A DNA stretch of 61,406 nt, filler included, from Hausera hauseri (taxonomy: Eukaryota), in assembly GCA_046269625.1 (NCBI GenBank). It is 10 parts of 10 records of this genome, joined end to end, with 100 filler letters (N's around TTAATTAATTAA, not from the genome) between each part and the next. Parts side by side here need not be neighbours in the genome. Positions count along the whole stretch, not along the records: positions 16,822 to 22,553 come from JBJURY010197970.1; 9 more parts are not named here. One strand, given 5' to 3'. The notes below the pieces were generated by a model, which saw only the letters and a program-made list of their open reading frames with translations, made no database searches and was not told the DNA's origin. Position numbers and translations under genes: made by a program. This document shows, one piece after another, positions 291-60,448 of the stretch. Positions within the stretch are counted from its first letter, which is position 1, and every line of letters begins with the position of its first letter.

Positions 291-668
291 TTAAATATGG
301 TCAATCAACTTTTTCATTACAATACAAAGCGAAGCAGAAAATACAAGTCCAATGAAGGAATTAATCCGCTGTCGTTGTAGTTTTTGTCTCATTTCATCCT
401 CCATACATTTTACGAAGAGAGATCTGACTATCAATTCAATATATTCTCGCCCGCTCATTATTCTCGTTTCTGTGAGTTCACATGAAAACCGTACATCAAA
501 CACATGTCCAGTCATTATGTCATCGGTCAATTTCTGAATTTCACTTTCAATGTACTGTTCCATTTGATCCGTATTAATATTATTGATAGTAGTAGCAGAG
601 CTGTGATGCTTATAGCTGCATGAATTAAACATGTTGTAGTTTATAAATGAAAGAAACAAGCTACACAT
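291..668 (-). CDS. Small Polinton accessory protein with C-terminal hydrophobic helix (true start probably MEQYIESE)
   Basis: ORF ends FIGLVFSASLCIVM. A decayed homolog (MKQYLESEIKKLTDDILTGHVFDV) lies at about 60449-60720 in the same position relative to PolB. Confidence 0.55.
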   Translation of the reverse strand: MCSLFLSFINYNMFNSCSYKHHSSATTINNINTDQMEQYIESEIQKLTDDIMTGHVFDVRFSCELTETRIMSGREYIELIVRSLFVKCMEDEMRQKLQRQRINSFIGLVFSASLCIVMKKLIDHI

Positions 669-760
669 TTATTTCAGTGTATTTATTTGAATTCATTTTA
701 TTTGTAAACTAAATTTAAGAGGTGTTAGTTTATTTCATTTAGAAATACAATGAATATCCC

Positions 761-3700: not shown

Positions 3701-4255
3701 TTGACACATTAACGGCAAATGCTCGGCGATTTCAGGATCAATATAATTGCCGGTGACACAGATTGTTTTTCCTTCGAACTGGAAAACGTCAATCGCGAAC
3801 AACTACTGCGGGAAATGATGGCAGACGGATTACTGGACAGATCTAATTACCTACAGAATTATCCATTGTGCAGCAGTGCCATCAAAAACAAAATCGGCTG
3901 CTTCAAGGATGAAAGCGAAGGTCGAGTTCAGTATCGGGAATGGGTATTTCTACGGCCAAAATGTTATAGTCTTTCAACTGACTGTGGGCTGAAAATGCGC
4001 GTTAAAGGAGTTCAGTTGGCCCAGACGGAAATAAACCACGGTGATTATCGCCGTATATATGAAGCAGGGGTAGAAAACGGCGAAGGAGGAGAAGAAGAAT
4101 CAAAGGTTGTTGTGTCCCAAACGACCATCCGATCGATTGAGCACCAGCTGTATACGGTGACCAATACAAAATATGCTTTATCATGTAATGATGATAAGCG
4201 AAAGTGGGTGGGGCGAAATAAGAATTTGGCGTACGGACACTGGCGTTTGGAATAA
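761..4255 (+). pseudogene. Protein-primed family B DNA polymerase (Polinton pPolB) with Cys-rich N-terminal region and endonuclease VII-like segment; many stops and frameshifts
   Basis: Motifs in order: CADIE (ExoI), DHFTGRYL..ACNSCN, IFHNFRGYD (ExoII), RFLNSLQF, KG.F.YD, YLKLNVYLLADVF (ExoIII), LLYIDINTLYGWA (motif A), KLKNDSLYGK (motif B), AGDTDCF (motif C), FLRPKCY, ALSCNDDKR, LAYGH. Confidence 0.92.
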
Positions 4256-4575
4256 AAACAAACATACAAACACACACACATACACACACGAATTTGGATC
4301 TAACAATGCAGACAGATCAAAGTCACCCATTTACTGCAACAATCCATTGTGATCTGTGTTTTGTATAAATAATGTATATTGTTCATTGTTTTTGCCTTTT
4401 GTTTTATTATCATCTAATTTACCTCTATACATTTATATACTTAACTAAGTTTTACGAGAAACAATATGAAAGACGATATCAACAAAATTTATTAATCATA
4501 AGCTAAAATCAAAAACAAAGTGATTTAACTCCGTGCAGATCCTTGTATCCTTTCAACGTCAATTTTTTATAGCCT

Positions 4576-5166: not shown

Positions 5167-5516
5167 AGCGTATTTAGGGCTCTGTAATCTATACAGAACC
5201 GATGTTTTGTGGTACCTTTTTTCTTAACCATGAGTATTGGCGAGTACCAAGACCGGTAACTTGGTCGTATTATGTCTGCCTTCAGCATGCGTTCTACTTC
5301 TTTTGTTATTTCAGGCCTTAACAAATGCGGTGGTGGGTACCATTTAGACATCTTTTGCCCTTCAAAATAAATTTCGTCGTTTGAGCCAGGTTTCTTTTTT
5401 AATGGAATCGTTAATCTTAACGTTTTTGCTCTGCCTATATGTTCCTCATCTTGGGCAATAATCGATTTATATTTACATAATAATTCGTAAAATTGGCAAT
5501 ATGCTTTTGGTGACAA
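5167..5516 (-). pseudogene. Reverse transcriptase N-terminus (Gypsy), cut by contig end
   Basis: EVERMLKADIIRPSYRSWYSPILMVKKKGTTKHRFCIDYRALN. Confidence 0.93.
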
Positions 5517-5683: not shown

Positions 5684-6176
5684 TCAAAATGTTACTAAGT
5701 ATAATATTTGGATTAACGTCTTCTTGTGGCGGATTTGAGCGTAAATTAGCATTTCGGTTCTAGGCGGAATATTTTCGTCGACGGGGATCCATACTTCTCC
5801 TTGTTTCCTCTCTTTCATTGTCTTAATACCTTTTACTGGTCCAAGTTCAATTAGTTTTCCAGTCTGAAAATTTATTGCGATATTAGGTAATTGTTTCAGT
5901 ATATCACATCCTAATACTACGTCATCGGTTAATTGGTCCATTACGAAGGATTTGGTCCATTAATTGAACTAAAGGACTCCATTTAAATTTCGGTTTGGAT
6001 TTTTGCCCGAAGGCTCCTATGCTGTCTGGGTCTGACGATGATGCTGGCTGTAATTGTTTTCGTAATGTCAGCGGTATTGATTCTAATTTGATAAACGATT
6101 TTTCCAACCCTGTGTCGATTAAGGCATAAACTTCCCAATCTTCAATGGTAACTTTTGTGAAGGGTCTTCCTTCCAT
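5684..6176 (-). pseudogene. Retropepsin-like aspartic protease, frameshifted
   Basis: VYALIDTGLEKSFI (catalytic DTG) and DVVLGCDIL (GxD-like C-terminal motif). Confidence 0.85.
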
Positions 6177-6811
6177 AACTGTTCCATACCAACTTGACGT
6201 CTTTTTGTCGTTTAATTGAAGAAATCTTATGTCCGTTTATCGTTATTTCTTGCGATGAAATCATATTTTCGGTTAGCTGCTTCAGTTCTTCAGATCGTTG
6301 ATGGCTATGCTATCTATATTGTTTCCAATTAGTGGTTCTTGTATTATTGTTTTCTGGAGAGATTTCATTCCTTGTGTTCCCCAGACTATTGATCTCGTCT
6401 CTATATTACGAGCTATTCTTGGTGAATATAATATTCTATGGTCGTCTTCCACTCGTTGCTGATTAACGAATTGAATTTTCTTTAATACTCCGTATTGTTT
6501 TGTTCCTTCATAAGGGTCCTCATAGTTAAAGGGTTTCCGACTAAATTGTGACTTGTATAACACCATAGATGTTCTATCGCAATCTTTATATATTGGAGCT
6601 GTTGGTGGAATGATGGGTACGGGTGCCTTGATTGCTGAATACATCTTGTGTCTATTCTGTCTGAAAATCGCTTCTCCTCCCTTAGGCTCGTCATCATCGG
6701 AGTTATTTCTTCCCGTCATTGGTTTCTTAACCTTGAGTTTCAATCGAAATATGAGCCTTGCTCCTCGTTTATAATTATAATAGCCGACATGGCGTTCAAC
6801 TCATTTTTCCA

Positions 6812-8690
6812 TCAATTCTGTTCGTAGGCTTTAAGCATTTTGCCAAACGGTGTGATAATTGCGGTTATAATCTTACAAGAAAATCCTGTTAGCGTGAATA
6901 TTTCATACCCATTTATAACCTCTTGGATTATCGCTTTTACTAGTTGTACTAAGAAATAGATTTCTAAAAATCCAGATGCGGCTTGTCCAAAAATTAAAAA
7001 TCTTCCCCATATTTTGTAGAGTATTTCTGAGGTTACCCGTTGGTAATGGTTTGCACCAAGTAAAGATTCCCATTTAGCCTGATAGCGGGTATCATCTACT
7101 ACTGATGCCATGGCTTGGTTTAATTCGTGTGTTCACTGTCGTGGAAAAGCAAGAAATTGTTGAAAAGCTTCAATCTCTTTAGGTCTGTAAATACCCTTTT
7201 GAGATGTATCCTGAAATTTGTTAGTTATTCCTTTTGCTAAATTAGTTCCAGTTAGTTTTTTAGGAATGATAGTGAGGCCTCCATTGGGTAAGCTAACCCA
7301 GTCCGTATCACTACGTCTAAACATTGGTTCATCCAAATTTGCCTTACAATCCTTTAAGATGGTTGGTTGTTGCATTATCAAACAACACTCTAGTGAGAAG
7401 CATGGCTAGACGTGAAGTATTCTGGTAAATTACAGGAAGCTCTTGTATGCATCGTTTTTCTTCGACATTGATTGGTACATCTCTTGTCGCATTCATATGT
7501 CAGTAGAACCTCGCCAGTAACTCGGTCAAAGATTCTTTCTCTCATGGGAATGATCGGTGAGGCTAACTCAGGATTCGCATATGGGCTAATTTTGTTCTCA
7601 TAATTTCCGTATCTAACTTGCAGTCACTACTTATCATTTTATGGTATAATTCGGCTATTCCGACGTGTCCTTTATAATAAAAATAATCGTCTCGGTTTTT
7701 CAGATAGTCTTCAATTCGAATGTCCTGCGTTTCTAAGTTGTATGTTTTTGCGTTTATCTCCGTTTCTGCGACGAATAACGCTTCGTAGTTAGTGATGAAC
7801 ATTACTACCTCGCAACGTGAAATCATTTCATTTTTTATGAATTTCAATCCATGCTGATCAGTGATTAATATCGTAGGTGTATGATGCTCTGATACATCTT
7901 CATGTGCTCTTGAACTGACGTCGGATTTGTCTACGTATCGTTTCCCGGTAGTTTCATTAAATTTCAGTTCTTTGATCTCAATAAAATTACAGGCTTTTCC
8001 AGTGGGCGGTTCCCATATGACAGCAGAACTTCGGAAGGCACAAATTCCGTCTTGCACGTGGCATTTCTGATTCTCAGTATATAGCTTAGTGACACTATGG
8101 AACATTACTTTTTGTACTCGCATCTCCGATTCGTAAAAGTCTACTACTACTACGTTTGCTTCCGATCCTTTTCCGGTATCGTATTCCGTTCCACTATAGT
8201 TCCCGTTATGCATATCTAGCCTTCCAGCTAGTATCTTATACGCTCTGATTATTTTTCCCAGTTGCATTTCTAATTCCATGCTATCCCATTTCAGTCTTCC
8301 GGTTTCTCTGGCTTGCTTGCAGTGTTGTCTTTCCAAATTCATTGGAATTGGAGGGGTTGTTGGTTTAATTATTGAGGAGTACCCGTGCATTAGTCCACAA
8401 TGAAAAATACTACGAGATCGTCTCAGCATACATTCCATGCCATCCAAAGATAACTCTTGTTGTTGGTATAGAAAATAGCTCTTCTCCTTTGTTTCCAATT
8501 TATGTGGTCTGGCATCTTCACATGCTTCTAAGTCCATTAATGAATATTTTTGACCAAGCTTAAATCTATCGCAATCGTAGACAGTGCCAGCACCCATATG
8601 TTTTATTAACATCATTATGGTGAGCAAACTGATTAACCAATTAGATTCATTCTTTCGGTTGTTGTTATCCGTTGTCGTCAAGTTGCACAT
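6812..8690 (-). pseudogene. Env-like viral fusion glycoprotein, chuvirus/Monjiviricetes-type, frameshifted
   Basis: Hydrophobic signal WLISLLTIMMLI followed by VYDC..YSL.D...C, FHCG, C...GIC..VIW, GEVLL.YEC..CIQELPV.YQN..TRVL, GIY and C-terminal membrane segments WGRFLIFGQAASGFLEIYFLVQLVKAIIQEVINGY..GFS. This pattern matches chuviral-type glycoproteins as I recall them. Confidence 0.82.
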
Positions 8691-9089
8691 TATTACTGCT
8701 CCTTTTGTCTTCTTCCTTGTTAAACAATTTCAGCCAATTTACTTCACATGACAACTTTCTAGATGCTCTTCGCGCCAAGTTTGTAGCTCTATTTGGTTCA
8801 TCTTCTCGATTTGGATTCGTTTTAATTGCCAAGTACAATAATGCTTTTCTTAGCTCTTCTATCGTATTCTCCACCATAATCTTCTCGACTATTGCGTCGT
8901 CAGTTAGGCTACATTTTGACAGTTTGAAACGCTAACTTTTCATTGTTCTAGCTGCGTTAAATATTGCCTTTTCTTTATCATTTAATGTATCTCCGCGTAG
9001 ACTTGAATAATTTACAATAAGTATTAAATTCTTCATTAACTCGCTTAACTCTTCGTTATCTGCATTAAAAGTGGGGATCGACATTTGTC

Positions 9090-9736
9090 TTAACTCTGTA
9101 ATGAGTTCTCCGTTATAGTCGATTTCTTCTCGGGGTTTCTAGGTCTTCCGATTGGGCGTTTTGGTATTGGAGCGTTAGTTGGCATTCCACTTAGTGGTAC
9201 TAGATTCTTGTCATATTGTTCTTTGTCTTCATCCGTCTGTAAATACTCGAAATACATTGCCGCATCTCGTACTCCCATTGTTCCATTTTAGCCTTTCGTG
9301 TGGCTTCTTTTGTTTGTTCATTGGCCATTGTTACTGTTATGCGATTCGTTTTGTCGGGGATAATTCCGACATCTATTAACTGTTCTAAATCATCGAGTAT
9401 TCTTCCTCTAAAGTAGAATCTGTAATTTATCTTGTTTGTTCCACCATTATTTAATAACCATTCTCTTGCGTCCTTCACATAGGAATAAGTAGTTAACTCA
9501 CATTCCTTCTCATCCATCCACTCGGATGATATCATTATTTTCATCACTACTTCAGGTTTAGTCCTCAGAATATCCGCATACTTCTTTATCAAAAGTTTCG
9601 GCACCGTGTTGTAAATTGTATTCTCGCTAGATAATTTAGTCAAAGTCGGAATAAGTTGTCTGAGCTTATTTTCATTCATATTCACATTAGTTGATTCCAC
9701 CAAGTCCGTCTCGGTTGACGCTGAGTCTAGGAGCAT
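9090..9736 (-). pseudogene. Accessory region containing a ubiquitin-like domain and an AT-hook
   Basis: MKIMIS...YVKDAREWL...YRFYFRGRILDDLEQLIDVGIIPDKTNRITV aligns by eye with ubiquitin [38 protein letters not shown] AT-hook at about 9136-9162. Confidence 0.7.
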
Positions 9737-9891
9737 CTCTACGTTGAATTTTCTGTTCTGTGAATACCTTTCTGTTCCTTCTAGGTGTACTNNNNNNNNN
9801 NNNNNNNNNNNNNNNNNNNNNNNNNNNNNNNNNNNTTAATTAATTAANNNNNNNNNNNNNNNNNNNNNNNNNNNNNNNNNNNNNNNNNNNN

Positions 9892-16871: not shown

Positions 16872-17721
16872 TGTTATTACAGTGGACGTTTAATCGTACG
16901 ACGTACACACCGACGTCGTGCTGAACTAACTGTTTAGCGTAGTCTAAAAAAACTATATACCGACTTGCACACAACCCCGTGAGCACGCGCGTGAGCATAC
17001 ATGTCACTCATTACTGCTCACATGTCGCACATGTGTGCTCACATGTCATACATGGGTGCTCACATGTCGTACATGTGTGCTCACATGTGCATTTACATGC
17101 TGACCCTGTTCTAGACACTGCGTAATACACTACTAATATAATACTAAGGATAAAATTATATTTGCGGAAAATAGGTGAATATCAAAAACAATTCATAAAA
17201 AATAAGAAATGAATTAATTGTATAAAGCTCACAAGTATAAATACAGTGAAGAGAATGAAGCAAGTGAGAAGAAAGTTTTGCCGTTACTGATCGTGACTTA
17301 ACAAATCGGGAGAGAAAGCTTCGAGTTAAATCTATTCTGTTGAAACTTATTGAATTCGCGAGAAGAAACATTGCACTGATCTCGTATTACTGAACTTGAA
17401 TTCTACTGATCCTACGAACGATATTTATTGGTAACTGTTATTTAATAAAGTTGTATTTTTAATCTGTTCATAGTTTGCTTCGCTCCTTAAAAGCGATTTT
17501 ACTACCTTAAGGTTAAAATCTTTACTGTGACTTCACATAGTTAAGAGAAGAATTTTATTAAACATTTTATTTGCACAGGACTACTGATTAAACTAATTGT
17601 TATAGGGTACAAACTGTCTATCCGATAACGGTAGACCTTACCTGTATTTAGATATTGTAATCTCAAGTGTAATTACTGTTATATAGTGGGAGTTGTATAA
17701 GAACCACCCCAATATATAACA
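16872..17721 (+). repeat. 5' LTR (about 850 bp) of Gypsy family A
   Basis: TGTTAT...ATAACA terminal inverted repeat, TATA-like boxes near 17221 and 17237, AATAAA near 17444, PBS 2 nt downstream. Confidence 0.8.
17015..17089. repeat. 21-bp tandem repeat (x3.5) in LTR U3, rich in CACATG/CATGTG E-boxes
   Basis: TGCTCACATGTCGCACATGTG unit repeated with minor variants. Confidence 0.85.
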
Positions 17722-17741: not shown

Positions 17742-18038
17742 AGTTTGTGTCTCGCTAGACTTTACTTTCGAGTGTTAAATAATTACATACCGGCAAGTAG
17801 TGCCAATCACACCAAATAATTCGATATAATCGAGAACGGAGAGATAAACTGGGTACATAAGTTATCAAACGGGGAATAAATAAAACTATCAAATTCGAGA
17901 ACAAATATTGGTAAATCAGAAGTAAACCTTGTATTAAAGGATAATTCACCCATACGCCAAACGCGTAGAAATATATACAGAGATATTAAAAAATTAGATA
18001 AACATTCAAACTGAGAGAATAGAATTAAATTAGACGCC

Positions 18039-19200
18039 ATGGAGCAAAATAAGCAATTTAAAATCCCACTTGAGAAGCACAAAATCACTAAGGCAAATTT
18101 TGAGATAAACTACGTAACTAATATGGCAGCATGTAACCCACCAATAGCGCAGAAACTGGACATCTTTAACTTTGATTCTCTTAATCTGCCGCCATATGAT
18201 GATGAGCAGGACGGGCTTAATGGATTCTTGAGTACTTATAAATTGCGCCCAGAAGGTGCTAATCTTACTCCTGAAGTGATGATTAAACGCTTGTCATTAT
18301 ATTTGAAAAATTTAGCCGCTGACACTTATAGTGAGCTCAATAACGATGAGAAGAAATTTTGGTCCTCCCTAGTAGGAGCATTAAACCGTAAATTATTGCC
18401 GACAGTAACGCCGAAACAGAAACTTATGGAATTTCAAAATACAGTGCAACAGAAGGGCCAATCGGTAACCCAGTTTGCATTTGCATTGAAGAAACTCGCT
18501 AATAGTTATTTAAGTAGACTGAGAATAACTAATGTAGCAAAGGCTAAAACAGACGCAGAACGTGATGCGGCGGAAAGGCAACCCCGCCAGACTTAGACGT
18601 CCTGATAACAACTCAATTAATTAATGGTATTTGGTCCCGAGATTTAGTGAAGCAGTTGATTTTGGCCAGACCTTAGAATTTCGAAAAAAACTCTACAATT
18701 GGCTCAAGATTTAGAAATGGCACTTGATATATATGCCAGGTACAACGGTAGGAACGACGGAAATAATGATCGAAACGACCGTAACGATAGAAATCGAAAT
18801 GACAATCATGGAAGAGATGATAGACGATTTAATGGAAATGGAAATTATGAAAATAGAAATAGTAATAATGAATACAGGAATAGTCGAAACAATAGTTATG
18901 TTAATGGCCGAAATATGAACAAGTCAAATTTTAATTCGAATAGAATCCGAGAAAACTAAAAAGGTAGTCGAAGAAATGTTGATAGTACACAAAGTTTGCC
19001 GAATCAGTACAATAGAAGTACAAATAGGCCTAAGTCACCTGTGAACGAAGACGGTCGACAAAGAGTCGGTAGAAACGGAAATTTAGTTTGTTTCACTTGT
19101 GGAAAAGAAGGACATATTTTAAGGTCATGTCCAAACCCACGTAGCGTTTCATATACTGAGCCTAATAAGACTAGTATGATTAGAGTTAATGAAAATTTAG
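18039..19200 (+). pseudogene. Gag (capsid region, N/R-rich linker, CCHC zinc knuckle)
   Basis: LYLKNLAADTY...W..L..AL...QQKGQSVTQFAFALKKLA capsid motif; CFTCGKEGHILRSC; internal stops and frameshifts. Confidence 0.9.
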
Positions 19201-19302
19201 AGGATAAAGTATGGTGTTCGTGGAGATACATACACTATCATCGATATACAAGATATACGAAGATTTCTAGATGCTCAGCCTGCGACTATTAAGCCACAAA
19301 TT

Positions 19303-22300
19303 GTGATGGCTAGAAAAGAATACGGAGATAAGCTAAGACTATTAGAAGTATATCATGGTTTAGTAGAGTCAGAAACTGAATATGAGCATGCGATAGCACT
19401 CAAGCGAATTGATATGACGCGAAAAAAGAGTGTTCCGACGAGCAATAAAATATCTGATAAACCAGGAACTTCGACAGAAGTCGACTTAGATGCAGAACCT
19501 GAGTTAACGGTTGAAAAGCCAAATAAGGCTACCGAAGATGAAACAGCTGTAAAGGAATTAATGGAGCCATTAATACTTAAAATTACGAAAAATAGAGGCC
19601 GTAGCCCTGCATTAAAACGAAACGTAGAAGTCGTTTACACTCGCAAGTAACTCGAGAGAAATTAGAAGCGAAAAATATAAAAACCATAACAGAGAGCGAT
19701 GTAGAGCATAACTTAAATACGCTAGAAATCGGTCTATTAACGCCTACCGAGGTAAAAGAATCTACAGGATCAATTAATGAGATTAATGAGATTTGCCCAC
19801 TTCCCACCAGCGAGGAAGAAACGGAAAATATTGGTGATTTTGATCTAATAAAGTGCAAGGTTCGACGTTCGTAGAAAAACGCTGATGAGTTCAAGAAAAT
19901 GAGAATTAGATGCCACGATCCGGAAATAATACAACGTAACTTGGAAAGACTCAAGCAAATCAGCGAACAAGTAGATATATCCGGAAAAGAGCAACAGTTT
20001 GCCGAGAGGTTATACAAAAGTTTGAAATTATGCAGTGAAGGAAAACTCGATGAAGCGATCGACTTTGGACAACCTAAAGAGGTATCACCTGAAACGCTGT
20101 CAAAACAGAAGCACGAATTAGATTCATGGATTAAAAGTGGAGTCGAATTTTTAGAAGAATGGAGCAAAAACGAAAATAGTGTCGACGTAAAAGTCGCCAA
20201 AGCTCGGAAGTTATTGCCTACTTTAGAAATAAACCCAAAACTGAATAGAGTAGTCCGTAATTTAGAGTGTATGATGGACGAAATTCGCCACGCAATGATT
20301 AACCGGCTTAGAGAAAGACCAGTCAGCAATCGAAGTAATACCGATTTAGAAATATTGGGTGTAGACCCCGTATATATTCCTTTCTTAATGGAGATGATAA
20401 AAATCTCTTTCGCTGTACCCAAACGAATCTAGAGAATCGAATCAAAATGGAAAATGAAAGGCTAGCGCAGATTTATAGCTTGAGAAACCGAATTATATCT
20501 CTAAACCGCGAAGAAACCCAAAACGTAGTAAAAGCTTGTATCATAGAACTTGACGAATACAAGGACGAGTTTGATTATGTTAGCCGGAATATGAATTTAA
20601 TTAAAGGTCCCTATGATGAATTAAAGGATGCATATAAGATGCTAGATAAGGCTATAATGGCAAAGCCAACAATCGCCAATCAATTGTCGGAATGGTCCGA
20701 ATTAGTAACGCGACTAAGTAAATTAGTGGAAAACCGTAGGAAAGAATTTTCATAGAGCGAGCCTTCTATAAAGAAACTGTTAGAATTGAGTGCACGTAAT
20801 TTAGATAAAATAAAAGCGGAAATATATATCAGAACTCAATTCGAAGCACTACGACAGCTAAACTTTATGAAGAAGAAGAAGAAGCAAGAAGTAATGATAT
20901 TGGAAGAGATCTATAAAATGGTCGAAGATACGAACTTTACAGAAAAGCGAAATATAACTTGCAATTTTTATCCAAGATTAAGAAATATCCGACTAGAAGG
21001 AGTCCAACATTTAACAGATAAACCTATCAACTAGATCTCTATCCGAGATATTGAAACCCTAGACATTTTTCCGGAACATCAATCCGCTTTAACGGAAGCA
21101 ATAAAATTTTTGCATAAACCAAAAGAATGGATGGCCGGATCAGATCAGAATTCCCACACCGAGTTGACGAGGATAAGAGACGACCAACATCTTAGTTTTC
21201 AGGAATCTAAGTTCGTAAAGAAATTGCTAGATGTAATAGATCCCCACCCAAAAATCATAAATTAGATGTACGAACTAGCCTTGCTATTAGTAGAAATGGC
21301 AGAAATTAACGACGAAATGATGGGGCAATTGGTGCCTAAAATCAGACACGTTGAAGAAACCTGCATTAAAACCAAATAAAGCGCAACAAGGTTAGATGAA
21401 TTAGTAAAAGACCTCGAAATCTACCGAAATAAATATGCTTTTACCGAATCAGAGATCAAAAATAAGCGAGAATTTATACAAAAATGGCAAAGAAACGTAA
21501 TTATTGAACTAACAGATTATCACCAAAAAGGATTCATCAACTCTAACGAATTAGGCGAATTATTGAAAATGATTCAGTATGCCTGCGGAAATGGCATAGG
21601 TTTTCAAACTACGCAGATGAAAGAAATACAAAAAGAATTAAAGGAAATTCGAGAAAATGCGCAGAGAACGAATACAGATTTTATAGACTATGTACTCTCA
21701 GATTTTGAAAATGAACCGGAATGGGACGCATATTTAGAGGCGATAACGGTCAAAAATCCTATGACCCCAGTACAGCTAAGAGAAATAGAAACGTGCCCGC
21801 AGAACAAGAGGTATAATGTGGAAATGCTCCTGGATTCAGCGCAAACTGAAAAGGATTTAATTGAGCTAATTAACTTAAACATTACTGAAAGTAAGTTAAG
21901 ACAACTTGTTCCGACCTTAACTAAATTATCTAGTGAAAATACGATTTATAGTACGGTGCCGAAACTTTTAATAAAGAAATACGCTAAAATCTTGAGGGCT
22001 AAACCTGACGTAACAATGAAAATAATGGTATCGCCTGAGTGGATGGACGAAAAAGAATGTGAGCTAATTACATATTCCTATGTAATAGACATAAGGGAAT
22101 AGTTATTAAGTAATGGCAGGACGACCGAGCGAAACTATAGGTTTTACTTTAGAGGGAGAATACTCGACGATTTAGAACAATTAAAAGATGTTTGGATTAT
22201 CCCAGATGAAACGAATAGAATAGTAGTGATAATAGCCAATGAACAGATAAAAGAAAAAGCCATGCGTAAGGCCAAGACAGAACAATGCGTAGGACAAAGT

Positions 22301-22474
22301 GTGGGAGTCCGAGACGCTACAGTGTATTTCGAATATTTACAAACGGATGAGGATAAAGAACAATACGATAAGAATTTGGTACCACTGAGTGAAGTGATAG
22401 CCAATGCCCAAGACAGAAACGACCAGTCGGTAGGCCTAAGAAAATACGAGAAGTTGATTATAATGAAGAATTGA
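19303..22474 (+). pseudogene. About 1000-codon accessory region after Gag: charged alpha-helical segment, ubiquitin-like domain (about 22013-22232) and AT-hook (22417-22443)
   Basis: Chain of same-strand E/K/L-rich ORF fragments. The 3' part is homologous to 9090-9791. KRPVGRPKK reads in an alternate frame at 22417-22443. Confidence 0.7.
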
Positions 22475-22734
22475 TTTGTTATATCTTTCAATAACATTTT
22501 TACGGAAGTTGCGCTTGTGCAACTTTGTCGGGTTCGAAATGGTGGTATGGTTANNNNNNNNNNNNNNNNNNNNNNNNNNNNNNNNNNNNNNNNNNNNTTA
22601 ATTAATTAANNNNNNNNNNNNNNNNNNNNNNNNNNNNNNNNNNNNNNNNNNNNCCGACATCATCGGGCCGAAAACTCCGCACCCGCTTGTACCCGACCAC
22701 GATGGGCCACGGGACAACACAGCACTGTGGGCAT

Positions 22735-24940
22735 CACAATGATCAGAGGATATTATATTCCCTAAGAATACCAAGAGTTGTTAAAGTCAGATAAACATTT
22801 ACAAAATATCAAAAAATGCAAACTTTCAGAAGTCAAGAAACAGAAGCGGTTAGTTTCGTGAATAATGAGTTGTATCCGACTGGAGAATTTCGTGAATAGT
22901 GAGATGTATCCGATTAGAGAATTGAGGCAACTAAATGATCAACCAGTTACAGATGCAGAAATCAGAATTAATGAATATAAAGTATCAATGATTAAGCACC
23001 CTGAAGTTGACCAAATTGTTATTGCACAATAATAAAAGAAGGACCCTTCGCTAAAATTCATATCGAAAACTGGAAAGCCCACGCACTAATTGAAAAGGGT
23101 CTGAAATATCGTTAATCAAATATGACTCGATACCATAAGTTTTGCGAAAATAATTATATTTACCTCCAGCGACAGACTCCAGGACTATAGGATGTAATCA
23201 TGAAATTCATATGAAGAGACAATCATTTCATCACGAATATTCAATAATGGAGCAGTTAACTGATGATGTAGTATTAGGATGCGATTTACTGAGACAGTTA
23301 TCAAATGTGGCAATAGGTTTTCACATTGGTAAACGAATAGAACTTGGACCAATAAAAGGAATAAAAACTACTAAAGATAGAAAATATGGAGAAGTACGGA
23401 TTCCGGTAGCAGAGAATATTCCGCCCAAAACAGAGATGCTGATTTACGCACAAATTCGCCAAGACGATGATCAACCAGTATATTTGGAACCGAAAAACAT
23501 TAAACCTGAGCATCGTGCTCAGTAATGTGATAACAAGAGTATTGGCGGATCGTGTACCTATCAGAACATCTAACAATGCTCCAACTCCAATAAAGCTGTG
23601 CTAAAGCTACTTTGAGTCACACTTATAAAGTGTCATCGAGAACCATCTAGGAAAAAGTTTATAAATGCGTCGAATTTTGACCTCACGTTGAAACTAAATA
23701 CTCACCAGAATCGTATTCTCGCTTTTATGATCTTCTGTGGCGTTATAAATCAATTATCGTTAAAGATGAAGATATTGGTAAAGCTTTGAGATTAAGGATT
23801 CCACTAATAAAACGCCTGGTTCAAATGACGAAATCGATCCTGAAGATCAAAAGATATCGAAATGGCATCCTTCACCACATTCATTAAGACATGAAATAAC
23901 AAAGGAAGTCGAAAGAATGCTTAACTACGATATAATTAGACCGAGCCATAGACCTTGGTATTCACCTATACTTATGGTTAAAAAGAAAGGTTCCACAAAA
24001 CATCGATTTTGTATCGACTATAGAACACTGAACATTCATGAAGAAAGACTCTTTCATTACCCTCTGTGAAAGAAGCTTTAGATAGACTCTCCGAAGCAGC
24101 ATGGTTTACCACACGACTTGCAATCCGGATACTGGCAAGTAGAAGTGGAAGATGAAGACCGTTACAAGATAGCATTTAAAACTCACGATGGTGTATACGA
24201 GTTTAATGCAATGCCATTTAGTATTATAACCCGGATGATGAACAAAATGCTGATGGAACTCGAATATGCATTTGCATATTTGGACGACGTAATGATCGTG
24301 TCAAGAACGGAAGAACACTTAAAAGATATTGAAGATACACTGATGAGATTGGAACAAGCAGGATTGAAGCTGAATCCTAAGTGTAAATGGACCCAAAATG
24401 CATTATCCTACCTTGCACATATAGTTGAAGCAGGATCAAAATCCGACAAGTCATTATTAAACAAAATATCGGACTGTATGGAACCACAGAATCAAAGAGC
24501 TGAGACATTGGGTTAGGCTTGTGTGGATACTACGCCACAAACGTACCCATAACTCTCAAATAAATGCACCGTTGTATCGCCTGCTTAAAAAGGAATTAAA
24601 TGGAAATGGACAGCTGTGGAACAAAAATCTTTTGATGAGACGAAGACAATTCTAACAAGCTAATCTGTTTTAAGATATCCTGATTTTAGTTTGTTATTTA
24701 TAATCAAAACTGACGTCAGCGAAGTAGGTATTTAATACGAGTTAGCCCAGAAACGTGGCGATGAGGAATTAGAACACCCGATCCCCTATGGAAGACGATC
24801 ATTGAAGAAAGCCGAGAAAAATTACTCATGGAGTTATAAACATTACTGTAAAAGAAGCCCTACGACATTTTAACGTTTACGTCTACGGACAGAAAATTAA
24901 AATTTTTACGTATCATAAGGCCGTTACGACTTTGAAGGGA
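22735..24940 (+). pseudogene. Gypsy family A pol: linker, decayed protease, RT, RNase H (truncated)
   Basis: Homologous to 5167-6450. LQSGYWQVEV..KIAFKT..FNAMPF..AYLDDVMIVS; IKTDVSEVG...YGRRSLKKAEKNYS. Confidence 0.9.
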
Positions 24941-25499: not shown

Positions 25500-26148
25500 T
25501 GGCCTCTGCTCCACACACTGGGCATGTCGTTTTCCCATTCTCCTACGTCCATGCTTCTAAACATCCACGACACTATTTGTGTCTACATGCTTTATTGTCT
25601 AACTTCACAAATCCTTGTTTAATACTATCTCCACAGACTGGCCATATGTCCTCCTCTTCGTCGATTCCTTCTCTATCTAAATCTACCCTTGGAAAAATTT
25701 CTATAAGCTCGTAAATAAGTCCATCTTGATCTTGATACAAATATCCATGTATTATCTTTTGTTTTGGATTCACTGAGCTCTTCCAAGGGTCATACTTCAC
25801 AGGCACTAAGGTCCAATCCTTGATAATTTCTTGATCCAAATCAGGAATTTTACCCTCTGCCTGGTACTTCTGGTGCTGTCTCTTAAGCATTGTTTTAACT
25901 TGGGCGTCTACGGGTAGTGATAATTTCCCGGTCCTCTTGGATTTGAAAATGGGAGCTAAAATCGTTTGATTTCCGGATTCTCCCAATTCTTCTAGGATTT
26001 TTCGGGCCTTTACGGTCTTTATATAAAACACGACCTCTTTAATTCTGTGATGGCTACAATATTCTGCCGTGATTAGCAATTTTGCACATTCGTCGGTCGG
26101 GATATATTGAATATTTTCATTTGAACTCCTGTTATGCAGGAAATTCAC
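25500..26148 (-). pseudogene. Accessory ORF with decayed C-terminal RING-HC finger just upstream of the PPT
   Basis: Reading through stops gives (W)PVC-x-CRHK*CRGCLEAWT*ENGKTTCPVC. Confidence 0.7.
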
Positions 26149-27360
26149 TTCCGTGATACGTTGGTTTGGCTGAAACCTTCCTTTTTCCGGTGTTCTCTTT
26201 CGTGAATCGTCGATAGATCCTCTGGATGTACTGAGTTCTGTTTTTGTTCGATTTTAGTGAGTTTTGTGTTTTCCTTGGGGCGTTTGGTTTCCTCGGCTCG
26301 GTTCTACTGGGGTTCTCTATTCTTTCTCCGGACTTCCCTCGTTTGTCTTTCCTTTTGAATAAATATTCGTAGAATGAAGTCGATTTCTTTAGAGGGAATG
26401 CTTCGACTTTTTGCCTTTTAGGGTTATTCTTTGTTTTAGCATTTTGTGCGGGCTATTCTGGGGCTATGTGTATCTTAAATTCTACCGAAGAATTGGTAGC
26501 AATAGTTTGAATAGTTTCTTTGTTAAACTCCAGTCCATGCCTTGGAGTGTCCTTATTAGCGTATGTTCCCTTTATGGTTATCTGATAGCTACTTTGGTTG
26601 GAGGGTTCTACCAACCTACGCGGCGAATACGGTCGAAAATGCTTTCTGTGACGTTCACTTAGTCCTTCTGGTTTAATAGGACTAAGCAGATTCTGTGTCG
26701 GGTTTTCTGTGGTCCACTCATGATCCCATTTCAAGGTGATATCTCCCTTAGATATTGCTTTTTTGGCTAGCAGTCAGCAGGCGGCTTATCTTTATGTGCT
26801 TGCTTTTCATAGCTTCTAACATTAACCTGAAACGTCCTTCCACTGTCATCGGCAAGCAGCTCCTTTTTTCGTCAAGAAGTCTTTCCAGTTGTTGCGTAAC
26901 TACAGGGTGGATTTCCATCTCTCGGATTCCTGCTATATAGCTAATTGGTATTTCTAATTTTCCCATAATTCCTTCGACTTTGTGTTATGCGAGAATGCAT
27001 CCGTAGAGGCCATGTGTGAGCTCCATTCTAAGTAAGTTAATGTCTGTGCCTCGAATTAACTGTTCTTTTTTATTTCGGTTACTTCAGCATAGGTTTCCCT
27101 GGCTCTTTTCCGAGGACTAATTAATTTAGAGTATACTTTTACCCAATTTGTCTCTCGGACGGAGACTTCTATGGACATATATCCACCACCATTTTTCTCT
27201 CAGTAATTTACTGCAATAACCCGCACATTTCTTTCATCTTGAACAAGTCGATAGGAGCTTAAATCATCATCCTGATCACTTTCGGACGGCTGGCTTTCGA
27301 ACTTCAACGAGGGTAATTGGATAAAAGACGCATATTCGTATGTGATTTCTATCATCATTT

Positions 27361-27825
27361 TCACGGTAATGCTACGATTCGGAATTCTAGTTCACAGTTA
27401 TAGCGATAGAAATCTCCATTACATATTTTGAATGTACTGAATTTGTATTGTCTTCCTTTACTTGCATCCCATGGTTGATTCTTTAACCGGTAGTACAGCT
27501 CACCGTCTGAAAGGTGAATATATATTTTTTGATGATATGCAGGTTCGATTTTGGCTAATTGGTTCAGCGAATATGATCTGACATCTCTATCGTCCCTCAT
27601 GGCGTAGAGATATATGATTCGGTCTTCTTCCGTTGTCCCTTTCAGATTATTATGGATCTCACTTGTCCGATTATATTCCACGTGGTTTTTTTCGTATAAC
27701 TCGCTATTAATTTGGCGGTAGATGGATTTCGATTTGGGAATGAGCACAGTGATACATCTCTGGAAAAAATCGTTGAGACTATATCGCTCGTTGTCATTAC
27801 TGGTTGTCATCGTAGTACGTACCAA
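27361..27825 (-). CDS. Hypothetical accessory protein of LTR family B 3' region
   Basis: 154-aa open frame within the co-oriented cassette ending at the PPT; no motif recognised. Confidence 0.4.
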   Translation of the reverse strand: MVRTTMTTSNDNERYSLNDFFQRCITVLIPKSKSIYRQINSELYEKNHVEYNRTSEIHNNLKGTTEEDRIIYLYAMRDDRDVRSYSLNQLAKIEPAYHQKIYIHLSDGELYYRLKNQPWDASKGRQYKFSTFKICNGDFYRYNCELEFRIVALP

Positions 27826-27964
27826 TGTGAAAACAAAAAGTAAGGGCTAATCGTAAAACAAATTGTGGTTTTAAATCAAAACCAGTTCTTTGTTTGATGA
27901 CAAAATAACCCGATCTGTAATTGTCAGGTTTTTTTTTTTTTTTTATTTTGTAGTTTTATGGCGC

Positions 27965-28501
27965 TTAGAATGACAATTTTTTGGTAATTAACCGAAACAT
28001 CGCAATTGGTATGATGAGAACAAACATTGATAATACGACAGTTAATACGATCCATGAAGTGGTTAACATCATTGGTGCTTGTGTGGTAGCTGGAGTTGTG
28101 ATTTTATTATCTATGTTTTCGTATATGTGCGTTTCTGCACGGATTTCGTCTAGAGTACACAATGTTTTTGTCTGGTTTTGTTTATCCTCTGCATATACTT
28201 GTATTATGTAATCAGATTGCGGTTTTAACAAATTGCATTTTGTCTGGTAAGTATTTTTAGGTAATGTTACAATTTGATTATTATACGTTATTCGACAGCC
28301 TATATTTATATCGTAATTTAGTTTTTCTTCTATAAAGAACACAATTTTAAATTGATATGCCGAATATTTAACAGGTATACTTTCTATTTCTATTTTAGGC
28401 ACACTGCCCCATGCACCGGTTTTTGTAGCGACACTAACTTGAGTGGTCGGCTTTTCGGTTGTCGTCTTNNNNNNNNNNTCGTCTTTATTGGAATCTTTCA
28501 T
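27965..28501 (-). CDS. Type I membrane protein C-terminal part: Thr-rich stalk, fibronectin type III-like domain, TM helix, short basic tail
   Basis: LKPQSDYIIQVYAE (FN3 L.P...Y...V.A signature), TTTEKPTT and TTPATTQ, WIVLTVVLSMFVLIIPIAMF then RLITKK. Probably continues upstream into 28485-29000 via a frameshift or the 10-N gap. Confidence 0.6.
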   Translation of the reverse strand: MKDSNKDXXXXKTTTEKPTTQVSVATKTGAWGSVPKIEIESIPVKYSAYQFKIVFFIEEKLNYDINIGCRITYNNQIVTLPKNTYQTKCNLLKPQSDYIIQVYAEDKQNQTKTLCTLDEIRAETHIYENIDNKITTPATTQAPMMLTTSWIVLTVVLSMFVLIIPIAMFRLITKKLSF

Positions 28502-28999: not shown

Positions 29000-31900
29000 C
29001 GATGTATTTACGGGTCAACATCAGTGTATTTATAGTGTATTTATGGCCCTTGTTGGGCACAACATCACCCCTCCCCTTAGCAAAGCAAAACTAGAGAGGT
29101 AAGAAAGTAGAAAATGTGTAGAAACGGCGTAGGCTGTCTAAGTGATCTTTGCGTGAATAAGACGTTGTACCCCTGCAGTGTTAATCTCCTTGCTGTAGAT
29201 ACTAAATGTGACTGATTTGTGAATCGTCAATGTCTTCGAACCTGCTTGCTGAGGTGATTGAGGTACACAATGTCGGATTTGGTCGTGTAAGGTGTTGTCT
29301 TATACAGGGACGGAGAAGGAGATGGAGGAGAAGATGTAGGAGAAGAGGAAGTAAAGGTTGTGGCGGTAGTAAAAGTGGAGTTTGGAGTATATTCTGATAA
29401 AGGAGTAGAAATAAGGGTCGGCATGGGAAAGAATGCAGGAGTTGTAGCAACTCAAGTGGGAATAGGCGGACGTGTCAGAAAAGGGTAGTAGATTCAATGT
29501 GGGGGTATCGTCTACAAAAAAGGCAGTCTTGACGTTGTTGATATGCACCGCTAGTTCCTTACTGACTTTAGAAATTATGGCATTGTTAGAGTGCAATTGA
29601 ATGAGTTTGTAGGGCCCCAAATACCGTGGTTGGAAATCTCACGGTGTTTGGTTTTTCAGCCAGACAAACTTTGCAGAATATAAATCGTCGGGTAGGTACC
29701 TTTTATTGTTGTGTATGATTCTGCAGAATGAATCTTTGCTGACTGAGACAAATTGATTTTGTGCCGTACGGATAACTTTCTCTGTACGTGTATCTTCCAA
29801 GGCGGTTAACTCAAATAATGAACGTACAAGTGTTCCGAAGAGGACTTCCGTAGGTGAACAACTTGTAGAAGTAGAAGGAGTGTTTCGCCAACCCAGTAGA
29901 ACCAACGGAAGAAGAGTAGCCCAACTGCTATTGGATTCAGCGAGGATTCGCAGTGACGTTTTTAGTGTTCGGTGGAATCTCTTTAGACGACCATTCAGTT
30001 GGGGGTGATACGGTATTGTGTGTATATGGCTGATTCCTAATCGGTTAGCGAGTGATTTAAACAAGTTGGACTCAAACTAAGTGCCTTGGTCCGTAATAAT
30101 GAACCTAGGGGATCCAAACCTGCTGATCCAAGTGCGTTTGAAAACGTCGGCTATTGTGTCCGTGTTTCTGCACCGTAGCGAGACAGCTTCTGGCCAATGT
30201 GAGGAACGATCCATCATGGTCAAAATAAACTGATGACCGTTGTCAGGAGGGAGAGGACCAACAATATCTATATGTGCTGATTCGAAACAGGATGTGCAAG
30301 GGAAATGATATAGTGGTGGCTTCAAATGCTTGATGGTTTTAAATTTTTGGCAGGCCGCACATGCACGAACCCACATTTGCGTCTGTAGTGAGGATCAGCT
30401 GTGCACCATTCTTGGGGAAGCTAATATTTCGTCAGTTTTTAGACCTTCTCTTAGTTTTTCGAATTTGTTTACTAGTTCAGGAGTCCATTGTATTGGCTGG
30501 TGTTTTTTTCCACCACTGAGATGAGCAAAAGGTGCGGTAAGTTTAGAGCAGTACGGCACATGCTTATGAACGAAATGCAAAGTGCCTAAAAATCTCCTCA
30601 TTTCTGCTGTTATTCGAGGTAGTTGCACGTTTTTTAGGGCTTCAACTCAATCGGGCTGAGGCGAGTGGCCTTCGGAAGAAATAATGTGACCTAGAAAATT
30701 TATACGCTTCTGGAAAAGTGACATTTGGCGAAATTAATCTGCAGGATATGCTGGTGTAAATGTTGAAAAATTGATCTGAGGTGTTCTTCGTGTTGTTGGG
30801 TTGAAGAAGAAACAATTAATATGTCATTGATATAGGAATAAACATATGAAAAATCAGAAAGGATAGCATCGATTTGGCGTTGAAAAGTCTGCGCAACATT
30901 CCGTAGGCCAAAAAACATGTACAGATATTTGTAAATGCTAAAAGGAGTAGTGACGGCTGTTTTTTTTATATCCTCAGATGCCACAGTAATTTGGTGATAG
31001 GCTTTGGATAAATCAATTGTAGAATAAATTGTAATGGAATTGAGGCGGTGTAATATATCCTTAATAAGTGGCAGCGGGTATTCATCCATTATGGTCAAAG
31101 TGTTCGACTGGCGATAATCACCACATGGTCTAAAAGTTTCATCCTTCTTTTGCACGACATGCAATGGCAACGACCATGGGGATTTGGAGCGACGTACAAT
31201 ACCGGAGAGTTCGAGGTTTAGAAACTCGGCTTCAACATCTTGTCTTTTTGAATAATTCTAGAACAAAATACGTTGATGAATTGCTGCAGGTAATTGTAAA
31301 ATTTTTGGTGGGAGCGAGGAGGTTTTATCAGTAACTGCGGTTGTATCAATAACAGTATGAAATTGGGCGTTATTTGATGATCGAAAATGAAGTGGTATTC
31401 GATGCAGAATGGTAGTATTGAAGATGGTATACAGAAAGTAATGTTACCTAGTGACGGGATCACGTTCATCACAGTGCAATCCCCAATCGTCATTAATATC
31501 ATTTTTAATAGTTCATAAAACTAATTGCCATGATTGTAAAAAAATGGTTTGTGCAACGTTTTCTTTAATATGGGTTTTCGACTTGCATCCACCCGCACGA
31601 CAGAAGAAATGGTATCGATGTGATCCAATCGGTCCTTATTGCAACCATTTGTTAAGCAACGTTGCTTGCAATCGACAAGGAGATTATAGTGCGAAAGAAA
31701 GTCGGATCCTAAAATGGCTGTCTGGACGTTTGCAACGGTAAACGTTCATTGGAACGTTTATGTAAATTTTGGAAGGGTAAAAGAAAGCCTACATGTATCG
31801 GAAACATGTAGCGGTTGTCCGGAAGCTGTAAAAAGGGTTATTGTTGAATGAGGTGTGTTTGGTTGGAAAGGTGAGTGGCGGTAAAGAAATCGCTGCATCG

Positions 31901-34910: not shown

Positions 34911-36068
34911 TCAACTACACAATTTCTTAAATTGGGAATAGTAACTTGGATGTTGAGATGCTGTTGAGAGAAATTCTGTGACTTTCTGATAACGATTATA
35001 AGTGTCAGTAGTAATAGATGTTAAATAAGAAAATAAATCATTTCGGCGATTTTCATCGTACTCTTCATTTATCGAGTTTATTATGTGACGTGTCCAGTTA
35101 TCGAAATACAAATTATAACAGTCATATCGATCTGTACTGAATAAATTGATATCTCCAACCAAATATGTCAATACGTTTCCTATATTCTCACTTTTTGAAC
35201 TTTTAAATGAGTCAAAAAGGATTTCATTTAGACATTTAATAAAATAGCAAATATCCACTTCTGTGTCACGAATTTTATTTTTCATTCCATTGATTTCGAA
35301 CTTGATATATTTCCTGAAAGATTGTCCTTTATAATTCTTAGACATTTCAAATGAAAATGTCCTAATCTTAATATAATCGGTAAAATATTTTTCTGCAGGA
35401 TTAGAACAGTTCATTGAAAAATATACCAAAATGGTTTTCATGACGGCCAACGCCTTACTGTTGACCTCAATTTCACGAGACAAAGAATCAATTAATTTAT
35501 CACACAAATAAGGATAATTAAGAATAAAATTTGTCAATGCAATATTTTTACGGAAGATAATAAGAAGTTGCATTGCGTAACTTAAAATCACCAATTTTGA
35601 ATAGCAGTTGTCATTTAAAGTTTCATTAGCATAGGAGGATAATTTTGAAAAAAATATGAAAATTTCTCCACCATTTATATTTTCCATAAATTTGTTGATT
35701 TTATTTTTATTTTCATTCCATTGAATTTCATTTCTGTGAGTATTAAATTCCTTTATCAAACTATGGGTATTTTTTGATATACTCAGCAAATCTTCAAATT
35801 CATTGATAAATCCATTTACAATATTTGCGTAGCTTTGGATTTTCGCATTATGACATAATTCTTTGAAATTCTTCAAGTCAATGAAATTGTTAAATTTATC
35901 TTCAACATTTTCGATTTTCCTTCGATCAAATGGACAACTGTTGTTTCTTTGATATATTTCAATGAAACAATTTTTACAAAGCGGGTGTTGACATGGTTTC
36001 AGTATGTAATAATCTACATTTTTATATGACTCATAACATATTGAACATTCATCAAATTTCGAATTCAT
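34911..36068 (-). CDS. Intact intronless RING-finger protein (N-terminal C3HC3D RING plus about 320 aa helical domain), putative E3 ligase
   Basis: CSIC-x-PCQHPLCKNC-x-CPFDR in an uninterrupted 385-aa ORF within very AT-rich DNA. Confidence 0.85.
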   Translation of the reverse strand: MNSKFDECSICYESYKNVDYYILKPCQHPLCKNCFIEIYQRNNSCPFDRRKIENVEDKFNNFIDLKNFKELCHNAKIQSYANIVNGFINEFEDLLSISKNTHSLIKEFNTHRNEIQWNENKNKINKFMENINGGEIFIFFSKLSSYANETLNDNCYSKLVILSYAMQLLIIFRKNIALTNFILNYPYLCDKLIDSLSREIEVNSKALAVMKTILVYFSMNCSNPAEKYFTDYIKIRTFSFEMSKNYKGQSFRKYIKFEINGMKNKIRDTEVDICYFIKCLNEILFDSFKSSKSENIGNVLTYLVGDINLFSTDRYDCYNLYFDNWTRHIINSINEEYDENRRNDLFSYLTSITTDTYNRYQKVTEFLSTASQHPSYYSQFKKLCS

Positions 36069-39000
36069 ACTAAACTAATAGTAATTATATGAAGTTAAAA
36101 GGAAATGAAATTGAAAGAAATTTAAAATAAAATTTATTTTTCTTTTATTGGATTAATTAATTTATTTGTTTTATTTTTTTAATTTCAATTTAATTTAATT
36201 TATTTTTAATTTAAAAAGTCAAATTTAACTATTTATATTTTTATTTAATTTTAGGCGTTTCTTTATAAGCATTAAATAAAAAAAATTTTAACTGAATTGT
36301 AGTATGTTTTATTCATTTGTATTTGAAAATAAATATAATGTCTGTTACTCAAAAATAGGCCGCCAAAATTCGCTCATTTCAAGAAGATTTGTTTCAGATT
36401 TCTAAAAGGAATTTTTATCCGAAATTATGTTCATTAAGTTTTTTTCATTTTTCCATATTGAAAAGATGAAAAATCCAAATCAGTGACAAATTTTGTAATG
36501 AGTAGTGACCAAAATTTAAGATTTCTTGTGATTATTAGAGATAATTGTGAATAGAAACTATGTAGAATAGCTTGTTGAAAAATTGTCATATAATACAATT
36601 TCAGCAATAGTTACAAGTAACAAAATCTCAAGACAAATATAATAAAATGTGCAAAATATTGATTGAACATTTTCTAATTTGAATTAAATAAGACAAGGCT
36701 GATGCATGCAAAACAAAAATAAGTTATACATTTACATTCATTATTTAAATTTTCACAAATAAATTGAAATTATCAAAACCGAAATTTTAATAAATTAATA
36801 AAAATTGATTTCAATTACTTTAAAATATAACCAGAATTTAATGCAACATTAAAAATTTGACACATCTACTGAACTTTTATATTTCTTTTTGTTTTAGTTC
36901 ATAGAACTATTTTTATAAAATAATTTCATTTAATGCATAATTTAGAAATTCAATAATTTTGTATTCTTCAAAATTTATGATTTCAAAAGTAAATAATAAT
37001 CCAGTAATAATTTGTTTTAAATAATTCAATTATTATGAAAAATAAAGGATGAAACAAAAATTATTAATATATATTTTTGACTTTTATTAATTTAAAATTA
37101 TTTTAATAAAATTAATTTAATATAAAAAATGCAGTCACTAATGAAATTATTTATAAATACGACTTAATGATATATTTGCACAAATTTTTATCCTAAAAAT
37201 AATTTCTCGATTTGAAAAACATTAGCAAATACAAAGATTTTTACCAATTAAAATATGAAATATGTTTGGTAATTCTAAAATTGGAAAGATATTTTTCTTT
37301 ACACCATTATTTTAGTCCGTTAACTTTCGCTATAAAATTATTAACAAAATGTTATTTTCTGATAAATTAAAAATTGTTGATTTAAATGCTCACAAAATTA
37401 ATTAAAGAAATGATTAATTAAATTTCACTTTTTAAATTATAAAATAAATTAAATTAAATTAAAATTAAAAATTCAATTCAATTTACTAATTAATTCTACA
37501 AGAGAGAAAACATTTAATTTTTAAATTTGTATCAATATCATTTTATTTTAATTTCATACAATTATTATCGGTTTTAGTATGAATTCTAAACGAGATGAAT
37601 GAATAATACATGGAGATTAGCAAAAAATCCAATATACGTTTGTTTAAATTAAATATCGTTACACTGTTTCCATGGATCGCAACTATATTGTTTTATCATA
37701 TCATAATTATTATGATAAAACAATATAATTCAAATCCATGGCAACAAGGGCATAAAATTTACCCGAATTTTTTCTGCTTACTCTTTACGCTATGAGTCAT
37801 ATGAAAATGTGAATGATTTATCATGTGTAAATTATTCTGTGTTATTTAGAATGTAAGTATTTACTAATTCATTAAAATGATATAAAAATTAACGGTTAAT
37901 TTATTTGTCAATCAATTTAAATACCATATATAATTTGTCCACAAAAATATTGAAATATTTAATATTGGTAAAATATATTAACGCTTGCAGTAACACCCGT
38001 AGCAAAATGATAAATTTCAATTTCATCATATGTATATAAACTAAAACTATATACATCCAAAATTAAGCAAAATTTATGGTACTTTTAGGTTGTCTGACAC
38101 GAATCCTGGCTTTACTATTGATTTAGCACATTTTCTGAAATCAGATACGTAATCCTGATGGGATTATCTACGTACGTGATTATTTTCACGGTTTGGAGTT
38201 GTTTGCTACAAATATAGTTCCCTTTGTAAGTATACTGCAGATGCCTTGTTGAGACACAGCCATTGAAAGAAAAGTTCAAAATTTTGTATGTTATGATAAT
38301 TAATGCATAAACCACTATGCATAAAACTACTAGAATACCTTGTATTGATGACACATGTGCCTGTTACGCACCTTTGGAATATTCAGAAAAGAAAATTAGT
38401 TTACAAATACAACACCTTCACTTAAGCAATATATTATCAACAAACCTAGCAAATATGGTATTAAAATCTTCCGAATTAATGATTTTGTTCAAATTATGCT
38501 TTGAAAGGAAGTATTTTCTGTAACAAAGGTATATTTCAAAATGAAACAAAACTATGCTTTGTGAATACTGTTACTTTTGATTTATGTAAATCATTCTTTA
38601 AATAAAAGCGGAATGTTCCATACGACAACTGGTTTACATCAATACTAATATCCAATACTCTATTTGAGTGCAGTACCACTATTCTGGTAAATACAGAGGC
38701 TTTTATTGAAGGTATTTCAAAGAAAGTTGTGAAACCGAATACAAGTAGAAAAAGAGTTGTTTACAAGGGTAACATTTTACCTGATTGTTATTGGGATAAT
38801 GGTTTCAAATCTATTTAACTCCTATCTTTATTGCACAGCGATCTTAGGAAATGTAGTGAATTAAACCTTCTCAAAATTGTATGAGATTATAGCAACAAAA
38901 TTTAGAACAAAATTCATGGATAATATAAATAATAATAATAAATATTTATTAACGGAAGTGACAACATTCATGTGAGATGAATGTCTATACTGTACAGACA

Positions 39001-40778: not shown

Positions 40779-41174
40779 NNNNNNNNNNNNNNNNNNNNNN
40801 NNNNNNNNNNNNNNNNNNNNNNTTAATTAATTAANNNNNNNNNNNNNNNNNNNNNNNNNNNNNNNNNNNNNNNNNNNNTATTGTGTTCGTTGAAACTGCC
40901 TACTGCCCTTACTAATGGTTTCTTCAATCTCAATCACCACCCTATCGCTATTAATCTTTCAACAGACCCAATGCTAATAATTCGCCTAAGTGAACAGTTA
41001 TTACATACCACTACTATCCCCACATATACTTCACCACTAGTACAAGCCCATCTACTTAGACAGTTGTATAATCTATTAACCAGTTCATTGTATATCGAAG
41101 ACACCAACAATATGAATCATAATATCATTGAGTTAAATCTCAATTAATTTCATTTATATTCAGATCTACCGGAA

Positions 41175-60288: not shown

Positions 60289-60448
60289 GGGATAATTAGT
60301 ACACATCTAAATAAAAAACAAAATAAAATGTTTTATATTAAGTTATAAATACTGTAAATTTGAATATGAAAACTTATTTGTCGGTCTCCTTACTGCCTTA
60401 TAAACAATTATTCTAAACGCCACAACAATAACAAAAACTAAATATCAC

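Follow-up and report, generated by a model that had tools for sequence, protein, structure and literature searches.

What does a ubiquitin-like domain (UBL) do inside the polyprotein of a retrotransposon? The question is raised by a 61,406-nt stretch of Hausera hauseri DNA (assembly GCA_046269625.1; hereafter the window), in which two diverged copies of a Ty3/gypsy-type element probably encode such a domain. We put at roughly 0.6 the probability of the following reading: a conserved domain, likely of ubiquitin fold, is present in two decayed copies between gag and env of a probably Burro-like GAG-ENV-POL element, and host proteins of the ubiquitin/SUMO system likely docked on it without its being conjugatable itself. 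An earlier note on the same DNA had described an integral UBL and an AT-hook within a retrotransposon open reading frame.

The window consists of ten short contigs with nine N-padded TTAATTAATTAA spacers between them. Since the spacers separate contigs, neighbours across a spacer are not linked. Copy A of the element lies on the + strand of the contig at 16822-22553, and copy B on the - strand of the contig at 5167-9791.

Conservation, decay and probable fold of the ubiquitin-like domain

Two homologous stretches had been claimed at 22013-22232 (+) and about 9325-9550 (-); we found the UBL at 22016-22237 (copy A, +) and 9323-9544 (copy B, -), within a 712-nt match of 74% identity between the two separate short contigs. 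The same residue is encoded in 56 of the 72 compared codons (73 codons, one stop skipped), and nucleotide differences number 11, 9 and 26 at the first, second and third codon positions. Synonymous divergence (dS) was 1.10 and non-synonymous divergence (dN) 0.127, giving a dN/dS of 0.115 (95% bootstrap interval 0.043-0.259; 971 of 1,000 replicates usable), well below about 1. In two shifted frames, the synonymous and non-synonymous proportions pS and pN were approximately equal. The proposal that the protein was kept by past purifying selection while third positions varied is thereby confirmed. With dS near 1, we take copies A and B to be separate sub-lineages that split while the element was active.

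Selection is no special trait of the UBL. The 82 codons upstream, a helical region (9545-9790 in copy B, -, cut by the contig end), gave a dN/dS of 0.15 (0.058-0.298). The longest invariant run, 17 residues with 7 silent codons, does lie inside the UBL, yet a permutation test placed it within chance (p = 0.16). Downstream, a conserved acidic linker (22304-22405, +, in copy A; 9174-9275, -, in copy B) is identical in 28 of 34 residues, with 12 codons that differ only silently. Because the upstream helical region is equally constrained and the acidic linker is kept, purifying selection acted on the whole polyprotein and did not single out the UBL.

The UBL motif proposed earlier is common to both copies, with two corrections: one of its dots conceals an in-frame stop of copy A (22100-22102), and the segment VGIIPD occurs in copy B only, copy A being different there. 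Copy B is open throughout the domain. The motif KRP(V/I)GRP(K/R), said to follow 55-60 residues later, is indeed present in both copies, but in each it lies in another frame than the UBL. The breaks differ, lying at about 22400-22410 in copy A, just 3' of the linker, and at about 9278 in copy B, just before it. Both copies are dead. Since the motif is out of the UBL frame in both, a single shared reading frame is what we infer for the active element, which is quite likely to have made one long polyprotein.

Contigs of a public run (X1; 15.5 million contigs), which is possibly the source sample and so not independent, allowed the breaks to be compared with other copies. On the two UBL-region stretches we found 4,964 and 2,439 of these contigs. 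At the stop of copy A, 24 contigs (depth 323/374) read otherwise, and 51 contigs diverge from copy B at 9278. Between 22400 and 22407 the length differs at four places, in 1 to 6 contigs each. By these counts the family is abundant, and the breaks are copy-specific, most of the contigs on the two stretches being without them.

The identity of the domain was approached through several sequence-based searches, which are not fully independent of each other. Among 24,736 Pfam families, ubiquitin (PF00240) was the only one matched by each copy (E 0.08-0.09, 0.08 for copy B), below the cut-off. SUMO-like PF11976 had no direct match in the Pfam search and is present in clusters of ESM Atlas neighbours, where ubiquitin/SUMO clusters made up 5 of 7 among the matches listed (0.89-0.91). 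One of three matches in a PDB profile search was the C-terminal domain of ISG15, aligned without gaps over 65 positions (E 1.1). The AlphaFold and Foldseek check suggested by the earlier note gave a divided answer. Both models were of poor quality (pLDDT 55 and 41), the single-sequence model had a topology other than that of ubiquitin, and Foldseek returned no significant structural match. The two-sequence model showed the order strand-strand-helix-strand-strand-short helix, which fits a beta-grasp, and 30 of its 49 Foldseek rows were ubiquitin, SUMO or UBL chains by title and length. Taken together, these searches predict with high probability a beta-grasp (ubiquitin) fold.

Neither copy has a Gly-Gly after the last strand, within the 40 residues from that strand onward, as had been stated. 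A conjugatable modifier is therefore ruled out, and the absence of a terminal Gly-Gly points to a docking module. Integral (type II) UBLs such as those of Rad23 and ubiquilin (PF00240) and the SUMO-like domains of Rad60 (PF11976) resemble it in having no terminal Gly-Gly and, probably, in the beta-grasp, whereas the domain described here sits inside a retroelement polyprotein and scores under the Pfam cut-off. An integral, non-conjugatable UBL in a retrotransposon reading frame under past purifying selection is thus supported.

Architecture of the element and its relatives

Joined through the 712-nt overlap, copies A and B give the order gag with knuckle, helical region, UBL, hook, helical domain, env, protease and reverse transcriptase. 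In copy A, a 21-nt tandem repeat (4.3 copies, 16999-17088) lies in the leader upstream of gag. It is followed by a Gag capsid region (18123-18593, +; Retrotrans_gag PF03732, E 0.002, below cut-off) and a CCHC zinc knuckle (19089-19130, +; PF00098, E 7.6e-6, above cut-off), which is the only one in the three + frames of 18015-22476. The long accessory region between knuckle and UBL (19201-22015, +; about 1,000 codons in broken frames) is probably helical and matched no convincing Pfam family; one relative (P0004) is 38% alike over 115 aa.

Copy B runs from the UBL, linker and hook through a stretch of about 150 aa with one stop (8671-9129, -), env, a spacer, protease and a second spacer to the start of the reverse transcriptase. 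Env (6812-8729, -, broken frames) is predicted to be a class III, mononegavirus/gB-type fusion glycoprotein (PF24664, E 2e-22 and 7e-16) with signal-like and membrane-anchor-like hydrophobic stretches, and lies upstream of the protease on the same contig and strand. The protease is of the retroviral aspartic type (5922-6236, -; PF00077, E 9e-4). The reverse transcriptase start (5169-5516, -) is cut by the contig end and has a 70% nucleotide match to 23245-24032, part of a third copy on another contig (23245-25100, +) that encodes reverse transcriptase and a gypsy-type RNase H. This pol fragment matches copy B over 802 nt (70%), and its frame runs on into RVT_1 and RT_RNaseH_2 (E 4e-18). The contigs of the family stop short of an integrase after RNase H, of long terminal repeats (LTRs) and of a primer site. 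By its predicted domains, the family is an env-carrying GAG-ENV-POL Ty3/gypsy element. The retrotransposon context given in the earlier note is hence borne out; what it had missed are the broken copies, the GAG-ENV-POL order with env, and a published Ubi2/SUMO-like domain in similar elements.

That domain is known from planarian Burro elements. Burro and GYPSM1 are giant gypsy-like LTR elements (Jurka 2007, Grohme 2018, as described in PMC6431247); Burro exceeds 30 kb and has one ORF of close to 5,000 aa. In the sections on Burro of Arkhipova and Yushenova 2019 (PMC6431247), the gag carries CCHC knuckles, a Ubi2/SUMO-like motif (PF11976) lies between MATH and BCL-2, a mononegavirus-like env between BCL2 and protease, and a dUTPase-like region between protease and reverse transcriptase. 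The figure legend marks tandem repeats, and decaying Burro fragments are reported from Dugesia japonica. Several ubiquitination and apoptosis domains surround the Ubi2/SUMO-like domain, and the authors suggest that Burro meddles with host apoptosis and ubiquitination. Loss of PIWI leads to transcription of Burro elements (PMC8532177).

The element described here shares with Burro a gag knuckle at the start, a long accessory region, a likely UBL upstream of env, a mononegavirus-like env lying between gag and protease, a spacer that separates protease from reverse transcriptase, tandem repeats, and copies decayed by stops and frameshifts. The UBL of the earlier note sits where the published Burro domain sits, as both are upstream of env. 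The element differs from Burro in having one knuckle instead of two or three, and about 2,400 codons from the start of gag to the protease against 4,873-5,140 aa for Burro ORF1 (PMC6431247), which suggests a shorter element. Pfam searches of the three read-through frames of 19110-21400 and of the open frames gave no match to MATH, BIR, ankyrin or Smc-like domains in this decayed copy; these domains vary among the Burro elements described (PMC6431247). BCL2 was not matched here, the stretch at 8671-9129, where Burro has its BCL2-like domain, had no match in one PDB sequence search, and two frames of the protease-reverse transcriptase spacer contained no dUTPase match. No Burro sequence was among the matches of our sequence searches. 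With only one knuckle, the element does not qualify as Burro proper and we file it as Burro-like; kinship with the planarian elements is nonetheless likely.

A second comparison concerns the errantiviruses of Nematoda, Bryozoa and Platyhelminthes for which Chary and Hayashi 2026 (PMC13524379) describe a GAG-ENV-POL order with an HSV/gB-type env. Gene order and env class are alike, and among the rows compared by eye the env found here is nearest to Schmidtea C1a. Short motifs, and a long insert that precedes the last Cys, recur in all six Schmidtea C1a rows but in neither the 18 nematode nor the 10 bryozoan rows compared, which together are a small part of supplement 2 (PMC13524379). The elements covered there are intact, whereas the copies here are decayed, and the word ubiquitin has no mention in the main text and seven supplements (PMC13524379).

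Both this gene order and such a domain upstream of env had been published before. As the gene layout has largely been described for Burro, our finding is probably a further example and no new kind of thing. The Burro-like group gains a shorter, decayed relative by it, and the dN/dS of about 0.12 is selection evidence that the active element kept the published Ubi2/SUMO-like domain. Two small motifs, one AT-hook-like and one a PTAP after env, were not found in print for such elements, with no search aimed at the PTAP. If these motifs worked as proposed below, a retroelement of an invertebrate would act on its host much as complex viruses do.

Possible roles of the domain and the basic motif

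In the mechanism that we propose, signal peptidase, acting at the env signal stretch, and the element protease would split the polyprotein, and the segment that holds UBL, linker and hook would remain in the cytosol, on the side of Env where Gag lies. There the UBL would dock host proteins that handle ubiquitin or SUMO and, with neighbouring host-control domains, may manage the turnover of element proteins, host responses or cell survival during replication. This placement, with the UBL binding ubiquitin-handling host proteins to manage turnover and cell survival, is put forward tentatively and at rather less than even odds.

The main rival to host docking is a structural or RNA-binding role: the UBL would be a beta-grasp that helps the polyprotein to keep its structure, oligomerise or stay soluble, or that binds RNA, with no link to the host ubiquitin system. 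In its favour, the UBL was held under no tighter constraint than its helical flank (0.115 versus 0.15, with overlapping intervals). In ubiquitin the last strand bears part of the receptor-binding patch, and in the UBL this strand differs between copies A and B. Three of seven residues are Arg in the best-conserved hairpin, as might be the case in an RNA-binding surface. Against this stands the setting of the domain in Burro, where its neighbours include several domains linked to ubiquitination and apoptosis (PMC6431247), which favours a host-directed role. We regard the structural or RNA-binding alternative as unlikely overall, and docking of host proteins as the better account.

The basic motif downstream of the linker reads KRPVGRPKK in copy A (22417-22443, +) and KRPIGRPRN in copy B (9135-9161, -). 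A search of all six frames of the window found KRP(V/I)GRP at just two places (22417, +, and 9161, -), and in none of 20 shuffles; its seven codons differ by three silent changes and one conservative change. The AT-hook proposed earlier holds in so far as both copies have a GRP core with flanking basic residues and Pro. It is not canonical: Val or Ile replaces the core Arg before GRP, and PF02178 scored 13 bits in copy A (cut-off 17.4) with no Pfam match in copy B. For these reasons we call the motif AT-hook-like only. The hooks of HMGA and EBNA1, as presented in PMC11354804, likewise have Lys, Arg and Pro on either side of a GRP core, but the motif here is single and has Val/Ile for the Arg of PRGRP. 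Some AT-hooks are reported to bind RNA (PMC4615771), and a nuclear import signal would be as plausible a role. By a narrow balance we favour binding of nucleic acid or nuclear import of the segment, tethering to AT-rich chromatin being one option. An AT-hook is not mentioned in PMC6431247 or in the main text of PMC13524379. No published report of such a motif in these elements was found in literature searches, some of them covering the top matches listed; Grohme 2018 and Jurka 2007 may hold more annotation.

The mechanism of the earlier note appears improbable: ESCRT or the proteasome would be brought in by the UBL for particle budding, and complexes, here that of integration, would be held to AT-rich chromatin by the AT-hook. 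An env is present, so budding is plausible; the hook fits the HMGA consensus as given in PMC11354804 at 8 of 11 positions in copy A and 7 of 11 in copy B; and the window is 64% AT. Yet copy B has a classical PTAP late-domain-like motif after the env anchor, in the open frame of the env-protease spacer (6594-6605, -), which would serve ESCRT without the UBL and so weakens an ESCRT role for the latter. The PTAP, found post hoc in one copy and in a Pro-rich stretch (base shuffles give an expectation of 0.005 for three frames), may be the better candidate for budding. The hook, moreover, is single, has no core Arg and is separated from pol, downstream, by about 3 kb and one membrane protein. As part of an integrase it is ruled out by that position, and for it to guide integration its fragment would have to accompany the integration complex.

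That the domain is not ubiquitin-like at all, and that an orphan polyprotein here has a constrained alpha/beta segment with a chance resemblance, is very improbable: all matches are below threshold and the single-sequence model differs in topology, but Pfam, ESM features, the PDB profile and the second model agree on a single family named beforehand, and similar elements have a published Ubi2/SUMO-like domain at the same place (PMC6431247).

The docking reading may be extended to a more far-reaching one, which we consider a long shot. The Gag-side segment would be a virus-like host-control cassette of UBL decoy, acidic linker, non-canonical AT-hook and BCL2-like domain. Cut free and nuclear, it might tether the integration complex to AT-rich chromatin, in the manner of MLV p12 or EBNA1, and decoy the host ubiquitin/SUMO defence, while the PTAP after Env would drive budding.

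Other features of the window

Other mobile elements are represented on further contigs. Three decayed and related fragments, 71-82% alike, match PF03175, a protein-primed DNA polymerase B (1-4521, +; 47947-50206, -; 57312-61058, -), and are presumably of Polinton/Maverick type. Another gypsy-type pol (29639-31257, -; RVT_1, rve) has no nucleotide match to the family studied here, and 55912-56265 (+) gave a weak match to a Tc3-type transposase helix-turn-helix. The broken frames at 25573-28468 (-) resemble a single-pass membrane protein, in which a long charged region comes after a weak match to fibronectin III. Finally, three RING-finger open frames lie on separate contigs (34911-36074, -; 41148-42449, +; 46613-47074, +), two of them long and unbroken (387 and 433 aa).
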